The notes below the pieces were generated by a model that was given only the letters and a program-made list of their open reading frames with translations, made no database searches and had not been told where the DNA came from. A stretch of DNA of 6,391 nucleotides from a virus (Duplodnaviria > Heunggongvirae > Uroviricota > Caudoviricetes): the IMG/VR virus record IMGVR_UViG_2778261391_000004, one strand, 5' to 3'. Positions 1-6,281 of this stretch are shown here, piece after piece; the stretch's first letter is position 1; every line of letters starts with the position of its first letter. Both the position numbers and the translations under genes were made by a program.

Positions 1-1038
1 AGTAAAACCGTTCAGCTTAATCACGGCTGGAACGATGAGGCATTTAATCCAAAGGATGCGCAGCGTTATCTCTGCCGCATCTGGAGCCTGATGCGCACGG
101 CATTCAAGGATAATGATTTACAGGTCTACGGTTTGCGTGTCGTCGAGCCACACCACGACGGAACGCCGCACTGGCATATGATGCTTTTTTGTAATCCACG
201 CCAGCGTAACCAGATTATTGAAATCATGCGTCGTTATGCGCTCAAAGAGGATGGCGACGAAAGAGGAGCCGCGCGAAACCGTTTTCAGGCAAAACACCTT
301 AACCGGGGCGGTGCTGCGGGATATATCGCGAAATACATCTCAAAAAATATCGACGGCTATGCACTGGATGGTCAGCTCGATAACGATACCGGCAGACCGC
401 TGAAAGACACTGCTGCGGCTGTTACCGCATGGGCGTCAACGTGGCGTATCCCGCAATTTAAAACGGTTGGCCTGCCGACAATGGGGGCTTACCGTGAACT
501 ACGCAAACTGCCTCGCGGCGTCAGCATTGCTGATGAGTTTGACGAACGCGTCGAGGCTGCACGCGCCGCCGCAGACAGTGGTGATTTTGCGTTGTATATC
601 AGCGCGCAGGGTGGGGCAAATGTCCCGCGCGATTGTCAGACTGTCAGGGTTGCCCGTAGCCCGTCGGATGACGTTAACGAGTACGAGGAAGAAGTCGAGA
701 GAGTGGTCGGCATTTACGCACCGCATCTCGGCGCGCGTCATATTCATATCACCAGAACCACGGACTGGCGCATTGTGCCGAAAGTGCCGGTCGTTGAGCC
801 TTTGACTTTAAAAAGCGGCATCGCCGCGCCTCGGAGTCCTGTCAATAACTGTGGAAAGCTCACCGGTGGTGATACTTCGTCACCGGCTCCCACGCCTTCT
901 GAACACGCCGCAGCAGTGCTTAATCTGGTTGATGACGGTGTTATCGAATGGAGTGACCCAGAGGTCGTCAGAGTGTTTAGAAACACATTAAAGCATTATT
1001 TGCCAATGTTTACTCGGCAAGAGAAGATAAGTGGCTAG
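1..1038 (+). CDS. A: Replication initiation endonuclease gpA (rolling-circle HUH nickase), C-terminal part; 5' end lies outside the window
   Basis: Frame 1 is open from base 1 (SKTVQLNHGWNDEAF...) to the TAG at 1036..1038. It contains an HUH motif (PHWHMM, 169..177) and a YIAKY double-tyrosine motif (322..336) like the catalytic tyrosines of phiX174/P2 A proteins. Codon usage is GC-rich like the phage backbone. Confidence 0.9.
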   Translation, partial: SKTVQLNHGWNDEAFNPKDAQRYLCRIWSLMRTAFKDNDLQVYGLRVVEPHHDGTPHWHMMLFCNPRQRNQIIEIMRRYALKEDGDERGAARNRFQAKHLNRGGAAGYIAKYISKNIDGYALDGQLDNDTGRPLKDTAAAVTAWASTWRIPQFKTVGLPTMGAYRELRKLPRGVSIADEFDERVEAARAAADSGDFALYISAQGGANVPRDCQTVRVARSPSDDVNEYEEEVERVVGIYAPHLGARHIHITRTTDWRIVPKVPVVEPLTLKSGIAAPRSPVNNCGKLTGGDTSSPAPTPSEHAAAVLNLVDDGVIEWSDPEVVRVFRNTLKHYLPMFTRQEKISG

Positions 1039-1252
1039 CTGATATAATTGCATAGGATTACATTGTTCGTTTGGATGGTCGGAGCTTGGAGAGAGTAACT
1101 GTCGTTCACTTGCTTTGAGTTTTTCAAAATGACCATCAGCAGCAAATTGGGAACTTCAGGGGGCTGGAGCGTGGCTATTAATCATCCGAAAAATCACTTT
1201 CTCACATTAAGGGATTGTTAGTTTGATTCAACTTTTAAAGCAACTATGGCTT

Positions 1253-1280
1253 TAGACAATGACTGATGTCATGATAGAAT
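1253..1280 (+). promoter_or_regulatory. Candidate sigma70 promoter for the methyltransferase gene
   Basis: -35-like TAGACA (1253..1258), 16-bp spacer, extended -10 TGaTAGAAT (1272..1280), about 40 bp upstream of the ATG at 1321. Sequence-only prediction. Confidence 0.3.
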
Positions 1281-1320
1281 ACATGATCGTTAGTTGAATC
1301 TTTAGCATGGTTATTTGAAT

Positions 1321-2472
1321 ATGAATGTAGTTGATTTATTCTCTGGAGTTGGCGGTTTAAGCTTAGGGGCAACTCGAGCCGGTTTCAACTTGGTTGGAGC
1401 TGTTGAACTGGATAAACATGCTATTTTTTCACATGAGTTAAACTTCCCAAAATCAACACATTTGCATCGGGATGTCTGCTCGCTTACAGCAAAAGATATT
1501 TTGTCTGCATGTGCTGTAAAGGACATTGATTGCGTTATTGGTGGTCCACCTTGCCAAGGATTTAGCACCATTGGAAAAAGGAATGCCAATGATACAAGAA
1601 ATGAATTGTATATTCATTTTTTTAGGTTGGTAAGTGAGTTATCTCCAATTTGTTTTTTGGCAGAGAATGTTCCAGGAATTATGGGTGAGAAATATAATCC
1701 AGTAAGAGAAGAAGCATTTTCTTTAGTTAGAGATGGCTATTGTTTATTACATCCAATAAGGGTTAATGCTTCAAATTATGGAGCACCTACGACACGGACA
1801 CGAATATTTTTCATGGGTTTTAAAAGAGGTTTTATTAATCAGTTAAAAGAATCTGATTTTTTTCCTAAAAATATAATAGAGCAGACTCTTGTCAAAGATG
1901 CACTCTACGGATTACCGCGAACTATAAGAAAAGAGTGGCAGACAGAGGAGCAAGGCTGGCGTTCAGTAAAAATGGATAAAGATGGTTACTATTATGAGCG
2001 ACTTTGGGGACATATACCAAATGGTGTAGGTGATGCAGAATCCATTCAAAATTTAAAGAAAGGATTGGTATCTGGCTTTTTAGGTACAGCTCATTCGGAG
2101 GAAGTGCTCAGGAGATATAGACAACTTTCATTCGGTGAAACTGATAAGATTTCGAGATCACAACGACTCAATCCTAACGGTTTTTGTCCAACTTTGAGAG
2201 CAGGTACAGGAAGTGACAAGGGGAGTTATCAGGCCGTTAGGCCAATTCACCCTACTCAAGCTAGGGTGATAACTCCTCGTGAAGCAGCTAGGTTACAAGG
2301 GTTTCCTGATTGGTTCCGTTTTCATCCTACAAAGTGGCACAGTTTTAGACAGATAGGTAATAGCGTTAGTCCGCTTGTGGCTGAGGCTATGCTATTACCT
2401 TTATACGATTACTGTTTAAAAGTTAAAAAAGAATCTTTGAATACCATGGAACGACCTTGTAGTATTCGATAA
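1321..2472 (+). CDS. DNA (cytosine-5)-methyltransferase (Dcm-like C5-MTase)
   Basis: Long ORF with C5-MTase motifs in canonical order: motif I FSGVGG (1339..1356), motif IV GGPPCQGFS with the catalytic Cys codon at 1552..1554, motif VI ENVPG, and motif X QIGNSVSP near the C-terminus. The ORF track starts at TTG 1315; ATG 1321 is the more likely start. AT-rich codon usage. Confidence 0.9.
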   Translation: MNVVDLFSGVGGLSLGATRAGFNLVGAVELDKHAIFSHELNFPKSTHLHRDVCSLTAKDILSACAVKDIDCVIGGPPCQGFSTIGKRNANDTRNELYIHFFRLVSELSPICFLAENVPGIMGEKYNPVREEAFSLVRDGYCLLHPIRVNASNYGAPTTRTRIFFMGFKRGFINQLKESDFFPKNIIEQTLVKDALYGLPRTIRKEWQTEEQGWRSVKMDKDGYYYERLWGHIPNGVGDAESIQNLKKGLVSGFLGTAHSEEVLRRYRQLSFGETDKISRSQRLNPNGFCPTLRAGTGSDKGSYQAVRPIHPTQARVITPREAARLQGFPDWFRFHPTKWHSFRQIGNSVSPLVAEAMLLPLYDYCLKVKKESLNTMERPCSIR

Positions 2473-3415
2473 AATTACTTAGATCGGAGTTGGCTCCAGA
2501 AGGAGTGGAGCCAATGTAAAACCCTAGAGTTTCATGGATGTTTTCTACTGAAGCTTCGGGTAATAAAGATTCAATATGTATCCTTTCTTTTAAAGACATA
2601 GCAGGGACGTTTATATTTTTAGGATTACTCCACTTCCCATCATAAAATGGCCAATTCTTGATTCTGGAATTATCAATAAATTTAGCTTCTTCTGTATCAG
2701 TGTTTTCAAGAACGATAGCTGTTAAAGTAACCATCTGTTGGCCATCTTTATAAACGAAAGAAGTTAATGGATGTATTCTTATGTCATTTCGACCTTTTAA
2801 TCCATGCCCTATTGCGCGTCTCATAGCATTAACTAGGAGCATAGGGTATTTTTTAAATCCGACATCTTCGACTACTGCATTCGGTGGTAAAAAATCTTGA
2901 GTCAAAATATCGTTTATCTTTTGAAATCTATATGCTCTTGGATCTCGTTCGCTCGGGTTTTTTCCCAAGGCTTCAGGGTTTGCATTTAAAGTGATCTTAA
3001 AAATGTCTTTGGGTTTTAGCTTTGTAACCAAATTAACTATTTCATTTAACTGAGCATTTAAGTCTGAAGGCGTTGCATAATCTAACCATATGATCGTTTT
3101 ATCGTCAAAGTTATAGCGATTGATGAAGTCTCCGCTCATTTCTGGGGTATCACCCAAATTTATGCAAGATAATGGTTTGTTAAACTGTTGTCGGCAATGG
3201 ACATTTTTATCTCCTTCGATAGATATCATTTTAGTCACTTTTAACAAATTATGAATTTGTTTGAAATCTTCGAGGAAAGGCCCCCCGAATCCTATATATA
3301 CATATTCGGATATGTTTGTATAATTGTTTAACCTTCTTAGGGATTCTATAAATAGATTCCTTTCAATGGCTTTGTTTTGCCGCAAATGATATGGGATGCT
3401 TCCGCCAGTACTCAT
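2423..3415 (-). CDS. Hypothetical protein (330 aa), second gene of the GHKL-ATPase operon; candidate effector or partner of unknown fold
   Basis: Uninterrupted 330-codon ORF whose ATG (3415..3413) overlaps the TGA of the upstream ATPase gene (ATGA coupling), with an AAGG Shine-Dalgarno-like element upstream. It has the same AT-rich composition as its neighbours. It contains a glycine-rich YVYIGFGGPF segment followed by acidic strand-end residues (ISIEGD, IIWLDY), reminiscent of a Rossmann-like fold, but function cannot be assigned by eye. Confidence 0.6.
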   Translation of the reverse strand: MSTGGSIPYHLRQNKAIERNLFIESLRRLNNYTNISEYVYIGFGGPFLEDFKQIHNLLKVTKMISIEGDKNVHCRQQFNKPLSCINLGDTPEMSGDFINRYNFDDKTIIWLDYATPSDLNAQLNEIVNLVTKLKPKDIFKITLNANPEALGKNPSERDPRAYRFQKINDILTQDFLPPNAVVEDVGFKKYPMLLVNAMRRAIGHGLKGRNDIRIHPLTSFVYKDGQQMVTLTAIVLENTDTEEAKFIDNSRIKNWPFYDGKWSNPKNINVPAMSLKERIHIESLLPEASVENIHETLGFYIGSTPSGANSDLSNFIEYYKVVPWYSKILF

Positions 3416-4836
3416 TGTTTAGCCTTTTTTAGAAATTCATCAAAACAATATTGACCAACCTCTGTTGGTGGTTGAGTTGCATCATCAAAGAGAAACTCTG
3501 ACACCAGTTTTATTTCACTATGTCTACGGCTAAATTTTATCTGACGTAATGGATCCGAATCCCGAGGCATTGGTAGCTTCGGTTTGAAAACTTCTCCTCC
3601 TATTGAACGTCGAACGTTCGACCAGTTTTCTCTAGGAATTGATTTAGTAAAGTCGACCTCAGTTGTTGAAACCATATTGGATGCAGTATTAATAATTTGC
3701 TTTCTTTCCTCTGCGTTACTTTTCCATTTGTTGGTAAAGTCCGTGAAGAATTTTAAACCCTCGCGCATAAAATCTTTAGTAGAAAGATATAGCTCAGAGT
3801 TACCATCAACACCTCGTTTAGTTGTAGTGATAGGTAGTAATTCAGCATTTGATGATGTGAAAATAACAACACCAGAAATTCCGATGAATTGAGTATGATA
3901 TTGTGGAACTCCAGCTTCTCCCCAACCTGTAAGCTTGGTTTTATCCGCATGTAGGACTACACGATCATTGCATATAATTGTCCAACCAGCTTTTTCTGTT
4001 GTGGAACGGCCTGATAATAAATTCTCTTCTTCTTCCTCACTAGGCAAGTTACGATAAAATCCAACTGCAACTTTAATTGAAACTCCATTTGAATTATTTT
4101 TATATACATAAGGAGCAATGCCGTCGGTATTGCCTTTAATGGCTTCTTCATCAAATATTAAATTGGTGCTATTTGGCTTAACAATACATCCATTTACTTT
4201 AACCTCAAACCCTTTTTTAATGATTAAACTATAATGATTTGCTATGATATTAATCAAAACTTCTTCAAAGCCACGATCCTTTGATAGGGATGCTTTAATA
4301 TCTTTCCTTAAATTGTTAATTTGGATGCTGACGCCTGTTTCGTTTAAGTCAACATTATTTCGCTCTAACTCCAAAGACCAGTTTTCATCATCAGCCATCC
4401 ATTCAGGAGAAATGGTAACTGAAAATTGTTCGTTTTCAGTTTTGCTTAAAATCTGAGCAGATGTCCCCATTTTGAAAATCGCTCGTTTCATTCCGATACC
4501 ATATACACCAATTGTCGGGAGATCATCCGCCTCACGTTCTGCAGGTCTACCCAACCTAAACGCATAGCTTTCCGCAAGTTTTGCTGGAATACCTCCGCAA
4601 TTATCAGTTATTCTGAAACTATTCTCATCAAATTCAATATGAGCATAGTAACCCTTGTAAACGTCTGATTTACCGAAGGTTTGCTCTGGAGTGAAATTGT
4701 TTTTTCTTAATACACCATCTAGGCAGTTATCTAGTAAATCTAGAATTGAGTCAGACAACTCAATATCTCGGGTGAGCATCTCAACAAAGAATCTTTTTGC
4801 TGGAAATGCTGCTATTTTGACGTTTGACGAAACCAT
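3412..4836 (-). CDS. GHKL-superfamily ATPase, MORC/HATPase_c_3-like (474 aa)
   Basis: Bergerat-fold motifs in canonical order in the N-terminal 120 residues: N-box DLLDNCLDG (4717..4740), G1 box DNCGG (4591..4605), G2 box GVYGIGMK (4486..4509). AAGGA Shine-Dalgarno 6 nt upstream of the ATG at 4836. Long ORF with AT-rich codon usage. Confidence 0.8.
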   Translation of the reverse strand: MVSSNVKIAAFPAKRFFVEMLTRDIELSDSILDLLDNCLDGVLRKNNFTPEQTFGKSDVYKGYYAHIEFDENSFRITDNCGGIPAKLAESYAFRLGRPAEREADDLPTIGVYGIGMKRAIFKMGTSAQILSKTENEQFSVTISPEWMADDENWSLELERNNVDLNETGVSIQINNLRKDIKASLSKDRGFEEVLINIIANHYSLIIKKGFEVKVNGCIVKPNSTNLIFDEEAIKGNTDGIAPYVYKNNSNGVSIKVAVGFYRNLPSEEEEENLLSGRSTTEKAGWTIICNDRVVLHADKTKLTGWGEAGVPQYHTQFIGISGVVIFTSSNAELLPITTTKRGVDGNSELYLSTKDFMREGLKFFTDFTNKWKSNAEERKQIINTASNMVSTTEVDFTKSIPRENWSNVRRSIGGEVFKPKLPMPRDSDPLRQIKFSRRHSEIKLVSEFLFDDATQPPTEVGQYCFDEFLKKAKQ

Positions 4837-4859
4837 AAATTATCCTTTTTCGAACAGTA

Positions 4860-4889
4860 ATTTTCGCATTCATGCATAATGGCTGTGAA
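4860..4889 (-). promoter_or_regulatory. Candidate sigma70 promoter for the ATPase/330-aa operon
   Basis: On the minus strand: -35-like TTCACA (4889..4884), 18-bp spacer, -10-like GAAAAT (4865..4860), about 25 nt upstream of the ATG at 4836. Weak match, sequence-only. Confidence 0.25.
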
Positions 4890-5034
4890 CGAAGATTCGT
4901 CTTGATTAGGCGTGCATGATTTTGCATACAAAATGTATGAAAAAAAAAGCTGCCTGTCTATGACTGATAGCCGTCTAGTTACTTGGTTTTCAAGACAAAT
5001 GCGACTGCATCAAAACCGTCTCATGAAGCGGGCG

Positions 5035-5053: not shown

Positions 5054-5086
5054 TGCGCGCTGGCGGTGGTGCTGATTTTATTTTTT

Positions 5087-5123
5087 CAGCGTCTCAGCGT
5101 CTCAGCGTCTCAGCGTCTCAGCG
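5087..5123. repeat. Tandem direct repeat (CAGCGTCT)x4 plus partial copy CAGCG, 34 bp downstream of cos
   Basis: Read directly from the sequence: cagcgtct cagcgtct cagcgtct cagcgtct cagcg. Confidence 0.85.
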
Positions 5124-5219: not shown

Positions 5220-5241
5220 CAAAAAGCCGCCCGCAGGCGGC
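5220..5241 (-). terminator. Rho-independent terminator downstream of portal gene Q
   Basis: On the minus strand: 6-bp GC stem GCCGCC / GGCGGC with a 4-nt loop (5226..5241) followed by TTTTT (complement of 5221..5225), starting 5 nt after the Q stop codon. Confidence 0.65.
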
Positions 5242-5246
5242 GTTGT

Positions 5247-6281
5247 TCAGTCGTTGTCAGTGTCCAGTGAGTAGTTTTTAAAGCGGATGACCTCCTGACC
5301 GAGCCAGCCGTTTATCTCGCGGATCCTGTCCTGTAACGGGATAAGCTCATTGCGGACAAAGACCTTTGCCACTTTCTCAATATCACCCAGCGACCCGACG
5401 TTCTCCGGCTTGCCGCCCATCAACTGAAAGGGGATGCGGTGCGCGTCCAGCAGGTCTGCGGCGCTGGCTTTTTTGATATTAAAAAAATCGTCCTTCGTCG
5501 CCACTTCACTGAGCGGGATAATTTTAATGCCGTCGGCTTTCCCCTGCGGGGCATAGAGAAACAGATTTTTAAAGTTATTGCGGCCTTTCGACTTAACCAT
5601 GTTTTCGCGAAGCATTTCGATATCGTTGCGATCCTGCACGGCATCGGTGACGTACATGATGTATCCGGCATGTGCGCCATTTTCGTAATACTTGCGGCGG
5701 AACAGCGTGGCCGACTCATTCAGCCAGGCAGAGTTAAGGGCGCTGAGATATTCCGGCAGGCCGTACAGCTCCTGATTAATATCCGGCTCCAGCAGGTGAA
5801 ACACGGAACCGGGCGCGAAGGCTGTCGGCTCGTTGAAGGACGGCACCCACCAGTAAACATCCTCTTCCACACCACGGCGGGTATATTTTGCCGGTGAGGT
5901 TTCCAGTCTGATGACTTTACCGGTAGTGCTGTAACGCTTTTCCAGAAACGCATTACCGAACACCAGAAAATCCAGCACAAAGCGGCTGAAATCCTGCTGG
6001 GAAAGCCACGGATGCGGGATAAATGTCGAGGCCAGAATATTGCGTTTGACGTAAATCGGCGAGCTGTGATGCACGGCAGCACGCAGGCTTTTCGCCAGAC
6101 CGGTAAAGCTGACCGGCGGCTCATACCATCTGCCGTTACTGATGCACTCGACGTAATCCAGAATGTCACGGCGGTCGAGTACCGGCACCGGCTCACCAAA
6201 GGTGAATGCCTCCATTTTCGGGGCGCTGGCGGTCATTTTTTTTGCCGCAGGTTGCGGTGTTTTCCCTTTTTTCTTGCTCAT
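5247..6281 (-). CDS. Q: Portal protein gpQ (capsid portal vertex protein)
   Basis: 344-aa ORF (MSKKKGKTPQPAAKK...DTDND) that I recognise as the P2 Q protein. GC-rich backbone composition, followed by a terminator and positioned next to cos as in P2. Confidence 0.95.
   Translation of the reverse strand: MSKKKGKTPQPAAKKMTASAPKMEAFTFGEPVPVLDRRDILDYVECISNGRWYEPPVSFTGLAKSLRAAVHHSSPIYVKRNILASTFIPHPWLSQQDFSRFVLDFLVFGNAFLEKRYSTTGKVIRLETSPAKYTRRGVEEDVYWWVPSFNEPTAFAPGSVFHLLEPDINQELYGLPEYLSALNSAWLNESATLFRRKYYENGAHAGYIMYVTDAVQDRNDIEMLRENMVKSKGRNNFKNLFLYAPQGKADGIKIIPLSEVATKDDFFNIKKASAADLLDAHRIPFQLMGGKPENVGSLGDIEKVAKVFVRNELIPLQDRIREINGWLGQEVIRFKNYSLDTDND

Follow-up and report, generated by a model that had tools for sequence, protein, structure and literature searches.

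Animals and plants use MORC ATPases to silence transposons and viruses. Links of MORC and paraMORC proteins to bacterial restriction-modification (R-M) operons were predicted in 2008 by Iyer, Abhiman and Aravind (PMC2292703); that paper distinguishes MORCs from other GHKL proteins by a motif in the S5 domain, GhXhhpXXRhl. According to its text, about 70% of MORC operons hold a superfamily II (SF-II) helicase and a nuclease, while a minority of MORC neighborhoods, covered in a single sentence, have methylases or restriction endonucleases and no helicase. The only experimentally studied relative that we found is VcSduA, a GHKL-Shedu (paraMORC3) protein of type I-D Shedu, whose anti-phage role has been shown and which carries its own nuclease (PMC12137116). 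Here we analyzed a window of 6,391 nucleotides (the whole stretch of viral DNA, IMG/VR record IMGVR_UViG_2778261391_000004), in which a gene at 3412..4836 on the minus strand encodes a MORC-type GHKL ATPase (474 aa, ATG start; WP_029401227.1, named 'ATP-binding protein' in RefSeq). The gene lies next to a Methyltransf_35 gene (MT35) and a C5 cytosine DNA methyltransferase gene of the Dcm type. The protein probably serves as ATPase subunit in a mobile cassette of three genes with R-M-like logic, marked by 5-methylcytosine (m5C). With MORC, MT35 and Dcm and with neither helicase nor nuclease, the cassette would be a variation on the MORC-associated R-M theme that has not been described before.

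The assignment of the 474-aa protein to the MORC-type GHKL ATPases can be made with high confidence. A first-pass annotation, made from the sequence alone, had placed DLLDNCLDG, DNCGG and GVYGIGMK in the canonical order of the Bergerat motifs. These stand where it put them, and the Pfam match, the invariance in 56 homologs and the MORC3 alignment take them far beyond chance. Motif I is D33xxxN37xxD40 (DLLDNCLDG, residues 32-40), motif II is D78NCGG82, motif III is G110VYGIGMKR118 (GVYGIGMK, residues 110-117) and motif IV is G168. The textbook forms that the annotation invoked, ExxxNxxD and DxGxG, were correct in order and placement but not in letter: an invariant Asp, D33, occupies the usual general-base Glu position of GHKL enzymes, and motif II reads D-N-C-G-G rather than DxGxG. 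In the family alignment (56 homologs, with identity down to 49%), D33, N37, D40, D78-N79-C80-G81-G82, G110, Y112-G113-I114-G115-M116-K117-R118 and G168 were all invariant. The profile search against Pfam HATPase_c_3 (PF13589) that had been proposed matched residues 30-159 (E=2.6e-8; 34.4 bits against a gathering cut-off of 25). Searched against the PDB, the family profile gave MORC3 as its sole, marginal match, aligning DNCGGI with DNGNGM and VGVYGIGMK with VGLYGNGFK; the single protein sequence gave nothing meaningful. Together with the S5 signature described below, these results bear out the earlier placement in the MORC/HATPase_c_3 subgroup rather than among the histidine kinases.

The AlphaFold2 model, built on the family alignment (mean pLDDT 81.8), showed the Bergerat α/β sandwich fold. 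The N-terminal strap and ATP-binding domain cover residues ~9-185 (4282..4812, minus strand), as delimited by the invariant columns, the model and the MORC3 alignment. The ATP lid, residues 97-113, was the sole long internal stretch of low pLDDT, at the site of the mobile lid in GHKL enzymes. Comparison of the model with known structures gave values of 18.9 for human MORC2, 18.7 for SMCHD1 and 15.9 for MutL, and 285-313 residues superposed on the ATPase modules of MORC3 and MORC2, the S5 domain included. The first 25 residues were nearly invariant, with P12, K14, F16, F17, V18, M20, L21, D24 and I25 the same in all 56 homologs. This would fit a strap that embraces the partner protomer, as in dimerizing GHKL ATPases, an analogy that is suggestive only.

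Generic GHKL motifs would also be expected of a housekeeping protein or a fragment of one, such as a histidine kinase, GyrB/ParE or MutL. This identity was ruled out for practical purposes, because searches of Pfam and NCBIfam gave no HisKA/DHp, TOPRIM or MutL_C match, and the protein matched no NCBIfam family at all. Neither the DHp/HisKA domain with a phospho-accepting His beside the catalytic domain, typical of sensor histidine kinases, nor the C-terminal dimerization/endonuclease domain and family models of MutL could be found. Neither of the outcomes that the first-pass annotation had named as fatal to its proposal, a match to a housekeeping family such as a histidine kinase, GyrB or MutL or a failure of the motifs to align with the Bergerat fold, was observed. 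The location of the gene in a low-GC prophage island, carried by only 46 of 5426 complete E. coli genomes, also argues against a housekeeping role. The defining features of MzaB were absent. For the MORC family (sensu Iyer 2008), the succession of GHKL and S5 domains and the S5 signature were present, and the score passed the threshold of Pfam HATPase_c_3. At the protein level, the gene adds one member to a family already known.

The C-terminal two-thirds had previously been left unassigned, with the suggestion of a transducer/S5-like or DNA-binding domain. Most of this part is transducer (residues ~190-345), because the aligned lengths on the MORC3 and MORC2 modules span the S5 domain too. 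Within this S5-fold domain (3802..4269, minus strand), a pattern match located the MORC signature at G284WTIICNDRVV294. The signature was found in 56 of 56 alignment members and in 106 of the 118 full-length representatives of 50%-identity clusters; it occurred in 0.3% of shuffles of the sequence and was absent from the paraMORC3 of another P2-like phage. The loop T338-T339-K340-R341-G342, invariant in the 56 homologs, is reminiscent of the QTK loop of GyrB, and K340 is a candidate for the γ-phosphate-sensing Lys.

The transducer assignment does not take in the last ~100-130 residues, which matched nothing. This C-terminal region (residues ~346-474; 3415..3801, minus strand), delimited by the secondary structure of the AlphaFold2 model and by conserved residues, gave no Pfam or PDB match. 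In the model, a long helix is followed by a small α/β domain of ~100 aa with a conserved KPxLPxP stretch. The invariant positions are Gly, Pro, aromatic and Leu residues (G414, P419, L421, P422, P424, F450 and F465), and the 56-homolog alignment contains no conserved acidic, Lys or His set of catalytic type. The region possibly binds a partner or DNA. Divergent viral homologs on four IMG/VR contigs (L152-L155) matched MORC residues 1-380 only, the C-terminal domain being replaced or much shorter, and MT35 and Dcm were present all the same.

The first-pass annotation did not take in the decisive setting of the gene, a P2 hotspot in which a Methyltransf_35 partner and Dcm are encoded as well. 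The MT35 gene (2423..3415, minus strand; 330 aa) matched PF20553 with E=4.6e-85. Its ATG overlaps the stop codon of the MORC gene as ATGA (3412-3415), which indicates that the two form one operon. An AGGA ribosome-binding site lies 8 nt before the ATG of the MORC gene, and a candidate promoter region for the operon at 4860..4960 (minus strand) contains two sigma-70-like consensus matches, by pattern match only. MT35 has the marks of a class I S-adenosylmethionine (SAM)-dependent methyltransferase: a Rossmann-like seven-strand fold, a Gly-rich loop after β1 (G42-F-G-G-P46, GxGG) and an acidic residue, E67, closing β2. In addition, β4 ends with the invariant D112 followed by an aromatic residue, and N144 closes β5. 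Since these features are kept, SAM binding by MT35 is plausible. The best structural neighbors of MT35 were RNA methyltransferases (RsmD-like, Trm1, RlmI/RlmO and RlmJ). No second methyltransferase family appeared when 53 members were searched against Pfam at E<=5, the MT35 profile had no match in the PDB, and the matches in a Foldseek search of viral structures were all generic class I methyltransferases, at low TM-scores. The name 'O-methyltransferase' appears both in the description of the Pfam family and as the RefSeq product, and we found no tested function behind it. There were no fusions of the MORC protein with MT35 among the top hits.

The third gene, Dcm (1321..2472, plus strand), matched PF00145 (E=1.7e-59), TIGR00675 and the PADLOC model MTase_II (E=5e-100), and its RefSeq product is 'DNA cytosine methyltransferase'. 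All catalytic motifs (PCQ, ENV, RxR and GNSV) are present. The start at 1321 follows RefSeq; the mechanical open reading frame begins with a TTG at 1315. A candidate promoter at 1251..1280 (plus strand; TAGACA-16-TAGAAT, 10 of 12 matches, with an extended -10 TG) is likewise a pattern match only. Dcm and MT35 are convergent, and their 3' ends overlap by 50 nt (2423-2472). Overlaps of 31-44 nt were seen in other convergent loci (L010, L011 and L016), and such an arrangement could allow transcription of the modification unit and that of the effector unit to interfere with each other. Among the 46 E. coli genomes there was one, that of strain NMBU-W10C18 (L157, 522-1672), in which a 1-nt deletion split Dcm into two coding sequences, with MORC and MT35 intact; this reflects either a sequencing error or a tolerated loss of Dcm.

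The family of this MORC protein is compact and widespread, and its partnership with MT35 is nearly constant. At 50% identity, the family comprises ~1,800 clusters: a HMMER search of 1.84 billion cluster representatives gave 1810 with E<=1e-3, and 696 with E<=1e-30. Of the top 150 representatives, most of those that were full-length had ~455-500 aa, and the shorter entries look like fragments. In contigs from one genome per species, 462 stretches encoded a relative. The best 80 of these 462, 43-54% identical to the E. coli protein, came from more than eight phyla, including Proteobacteria, Cyanobacteria, Firmicutes, Acidobacteriota, Latescibacterota, Chloroflexota, Verrucomicrobiota and Planctomycetota. 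By tblastn, the next gene downstream of MORC, on the same strand, was MT35 in 74 of the 80 loci; a Dcm homolog was present in 63 (~80%). Among 67 viral contigs of IMG/VR with the MORC gene, 65 (97%) had all three genes. The position of Dcm varied. In a set of 66 three-gene loci, drawn from the best 80 and from further look-up loci, a Dcm within 1.5 kb was upstream and co-directional in 30, downstream and convergent in 25, and downstream and co-directional in 8.

Comparison of pairwise-identity matrices gave a Spearman coefficient of 0.59 for MORC against MT35 and of 0.22 and 0.09 against Dcm, so MORC and MT35 co-evolve, with Dcm largely uncoupled. In one group of P2-type contigs, Dcm was 81% identical to that of the window and MORC and MT35 only ~63%, which indicates a module swap. 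The linked Dcm proteins belonged mostly to one subfamily, with an average identity of 38% in the target-recognition region and 71% in the C-terminal part. The cassette is autonomously mobile, being found in prophage hotspots, Tn7 and integrase islands; in Aeromonas, for instance, it was carried by a Tn7-like element, and in Burkholderia by an island with an integrase and Vsr. When the 108 genes directly flanking the loci were scanned with Pfam, no conserved neighbor appeared beyond integrases (4) and HNH_2 (4), the rest being scattered.

De novo clustering of the neighbors in 83 loci placed Vsr fourth among the linked genes (25 loci). E. coli MutL stimulates Vsr, and a MORC/MutL-like ATPase might in the same manner assist very-short-patch repair of the T:G mismatches that arise from deamination of Dcm-made m5C. 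Iyer et al. 2008 (PMC2292703) drew this parallel too. The three genes would then be a methylase with its repair kit rather than a defense system. We consider this quite unlikely: Vsr is missing from 70% of the loci, the window included, and the constant partner is MT35. The signature of the protein is also that of MORC, not of MutL, the C-terminal domain of MutL is missing, and its occurrence in a phage defense hotspot and as Tn7 cargo fits conflict systems better. HNH endonuclease genes were linked in 8 of the 83 loci (~10%), of the HNH_2 type in five (L014, L034, L040, L042 and L088) and HNH_5-like in three (L015, L025 and L082). In L025, two complete MORC-MT35 pairs flank a Dcm and an HNH gene.

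The RNA methyltransferases that most resemble MT35, together with the largely separate evolution of Dcm and the occurrence of the MORC-MT35 pair without a linked Dcm in some genomes, could also be read as signs of an abortive-infection or addiction module. In such a module MT35 would be a toxin, for example an RNA-modifying one, restrained by the MORC ATPase and freed on infection, and Dcm would be an orphan methylase traveling along. The linkage of Dcm, mostly through one subfamily, at ~80% of the loci in genomes and at 97% of those on viral contigs, and the linkage of Vsr, which points to DNA methylation as integral, make this explanation distinctly improbable.

An R-M-like cassette would account for these associations in the following way. 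Dcm would mark resident DNA with m5C, and a MORC-MT35 complex would act on DNA without the mark. An intact C5 methylase and the frequent Vsr linkage imply that m5C is really formed. As in the analogous MORC, MutL and GyrB proteins, the N-terminal domains of the ATPase would dimerize on binding ATP and so close a clamp on DNA. Throughout the family, Asp replaces the general-base Glu, which suggests that hydrolysis may be slow and that the protein may be no motor but a switch or clamp. MT35 would contribute an effector or discriminating activity, through either SAM-dependent nucleic-acid chemistry or SAM-dependent sensing. The restricting step could be the entrapment or compaction of DNA, a damaging or blocking SAM-dependent modification by MT35, or the recruitment of a nuclease such as the HNH enzymes encoded beside the cassette in some loci. 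The adjacency of Dcm in three orientations and the Vsr and HNH linkages support R-M-like logic. So do two of the six cyanobacterial loci with the MORC gene and no MT35, in which Dcm is followed by a REBASE-type type II endonuclease gene (PADLOC REase_II, E=1e-127) at the MT35 position.

Several observations weigh against this explanation. Compared with type II R-M, the cassette holds a complete C5 methyltransferase and no recognizable restriction endonuclease. The conserved residues of the MORC C-terminus and MT35 include no invariant set like those of PD-(D/E)xK, HNH or GIY-YIG nucleases, and no PADLOC REase model matched either protein, although the REase of a neighboring locus and paraMORC3 were matched. 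Since the core has no recognizable nuclease, 'restriction' is only an analogy. Neither protein matched any PADLOC 2.0 model, and literature searches, full text included, yielded no paper or experiment on the trio. With Asp in place of Glu, the ATPase might hydrolyze ATP weakly or not at all. The split Dcm in one E. coli genome, if real, argues against lethal self-restriction, and the same applies to the cyanobacterial loci without a linked Dcm. In ~11 cyanobacterial loci the MORC-MT35 pair had no linked Dcm and stood among housekeeping neighbors, and the MORC gene occurred without MT35 in the six noted above. As these chromosomal copies look vertically inherited, domestication for a non-defense role is suggested.

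The loci with only MORC and MT35 include L027, L030, L033, L037, L038, L041 and L043. Those with MORC only include L049, L051, L065, L078 and L085, whose neighbors are cinA-like, aroQ, miaE-like and GNAT genes. Source names for MORC and MT35 were generic throughout; neither protein matched NCBIfam or the functionally annotated PHROGs, and both fall in PHROGs of unknown function.

The domesticated look of the cyanobacterial copies would also suit an epigenetic or anti-restriction module of the prophage, in which Dcm and MT35 are active nucleic-acid methyltransferases on phage and host DNA, MORC is a loading or processivity factor, and nothing is restricted. The cassette indeed encodes two proteins with a methyltransferase fold and no nuclease, MT35 keeps its SAM-binding features, and the genes are prophage-encoded. 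However, the trio is not confined to phages but is also found in Tn7 and chromosomal islands, some loci have an HNH or type II endonuclease gene attached, and no ATP-driven MORC clamp is known to act as helper of a methylase. The cassette also occupies what we take to be a position of anti-phage cargo in P2-like phages. This module is therefore doubtful as an explanation. We regard as similarly doubtful a bolder version of the defense reading, a nuclease-free immune system in which m5C would license self and a MORC clamp with its SAM-dependent partner would entrap and compact (silence) or chemically disable unmethylated incoming DNA. Such a system would be a prokaryotic forerunner of the methylation-linked silencing of foreign DNA by eukaryotic MORCs, with MT35 as a new kind of effector.

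The window derives from a P2-like prophage, with the three-gene island lying between the genes for the replication protein gpA (C-terminal part, 91-1038, plus strand) and the portal protein (5247-6281, minus strand), both assigned by family matches. The low-GC cargo island (980..4900) was delimited by composition, by the end of gpA homology and by phage matches confined to the flanks; its GC content is 0.33-0.44, against 0.51-0.59 in the flanks. P2-like phages in GenBank matched the flanks only (37% of the window) and had other cargo at the same site. The cargo in the 46 E. coli genomes was at least 99.9% identical. Homology to full-length P2-type gpA ended at ~975-985 (~residue 671 of 760) and was followed by a novel tail of ~19 aa. 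The 3' end of gene A has been replaced by low-GC cargo, and RefSeq lists a pseudogene 'missing C-terminus'. A perfect 8-bp tandem repeat (TCAGCGTC, 4.8 copies) at 5086-5123 lies in a GC-rich spacer that separates the terminator of the portal gene (5226-5241) from the region with the MORC operon promoter. At the same gpA/portal site, phage PhiR44_1 (PV340563; L002, 2860-5908) carries Dcm with a 652-aa paraMORC3, which PADLOC matched as REase_II. The gpA/portal region is presumably one of the anti-phage hotspots of P2-like phages. That these phages carry hotspots of anti-phage systems was described by Rousset et al. (PMC9122126). The main text of PMC9122126 and that of PMC13586616, also on P2-like phage hotspots, did not mention methyltransferase, Dcm, GHKL or MORC.

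The proposed origin of MORCs in bacterial R-M operons has been a matter of comparative genomics since 2008, and we found almost no experiments on it. The present cassette is 3.6 kb long, occurs in prophages of clinical E. coli and, at 44-50% identity, across many phyla, and has neither helicase nor nuclease. Being this compact and widespread, it may offer one of the simplest tractable systems for studying how a bacterial MORC acts on DNA and reads m5C. Catalogs of defense systems would gain a widespread system that is currently unannotated, and where such loci contain a Dcm labeled 'orphan methylase', that gene is probably no orphan. Nothing here overturns expectations; the cassette is a small entry point to bacterial MORC function.

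Among described systems, the MORC operons of 2008 (PMC2292703) are one of the closest groups. They share the GHKL and S5 architecture, the GhXhhpXXRhl signature, the linkage to C5 methylase and Vsr, and a sporadic, laterally mobile distribution. In contrast to most of them, the window cassette has neither the SF-II helicase nor the nuclease, and its constant partner, Methyltransf_35, is not mentioned in the text of that paper. Features typical of paraMORCs, namely ExxxH (paraMORC2), HxH (paraMORC5), TIR (paraMORC4) and the RE-nuclease (paraMORC3), were not among the conserved residues, and literature searches for PF20553/Methyltransf_35, paraMORC, bacterial MORC and GHKL with defense gave nothing on the trio. 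GHKL ATPases had been called uncommon as core components of characterized anti-phage systems, which is fair but not absolute, given the precedents of paraMORC3/GHKL-Shedu (VcSduA, PMC12137116) and Mza. Among the described systems compared, one further group likewise includes a protein of the HATPase_c_3/MutL-like kind and is linked to cytosine methylases. The paraMORC3 proteins resemble the window protein in their N-terminal GHKL domain and clamp-like middle domain (BLASTP, 25% identity over residues 87-372, E=2e-5), and a paraMORC3-Dcm pair occupies the very same P2 hotspot in PhiR44_1. They differ in acting as single proteins with a C-terminal PD-(D/E)xK nuclease, DUF4263, a domain that Pfam and PADLOC did not detect in the window protein. 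The latter carries the MORC motif, which is missing from paraMORC3, depends on a partner encoded by a gene of its own, and is not matched by the PADLOC models that match paraMORC3.

The eukaryotic modules of MORC2, MORC3 and SMCHD1 are only 15-17% identical to the window protein, which has no CW, coiled-coil or hinge domains. Their general base is Glu instead of Asp, and the window protein is bacterial and encoded in an operon with its partners. Systems of the BREX and DISARM type are alike in general plan, with self DNA marked by a methyltransferase, ATPase components and a core free of a classical restriction endonuclease. Their proteins are nevertheless unrelated to those of the window, as PADLOC gave no matches, and the window cassette comprises three genes, with a mark that is most likely m5C and is made by a separate Dcm.

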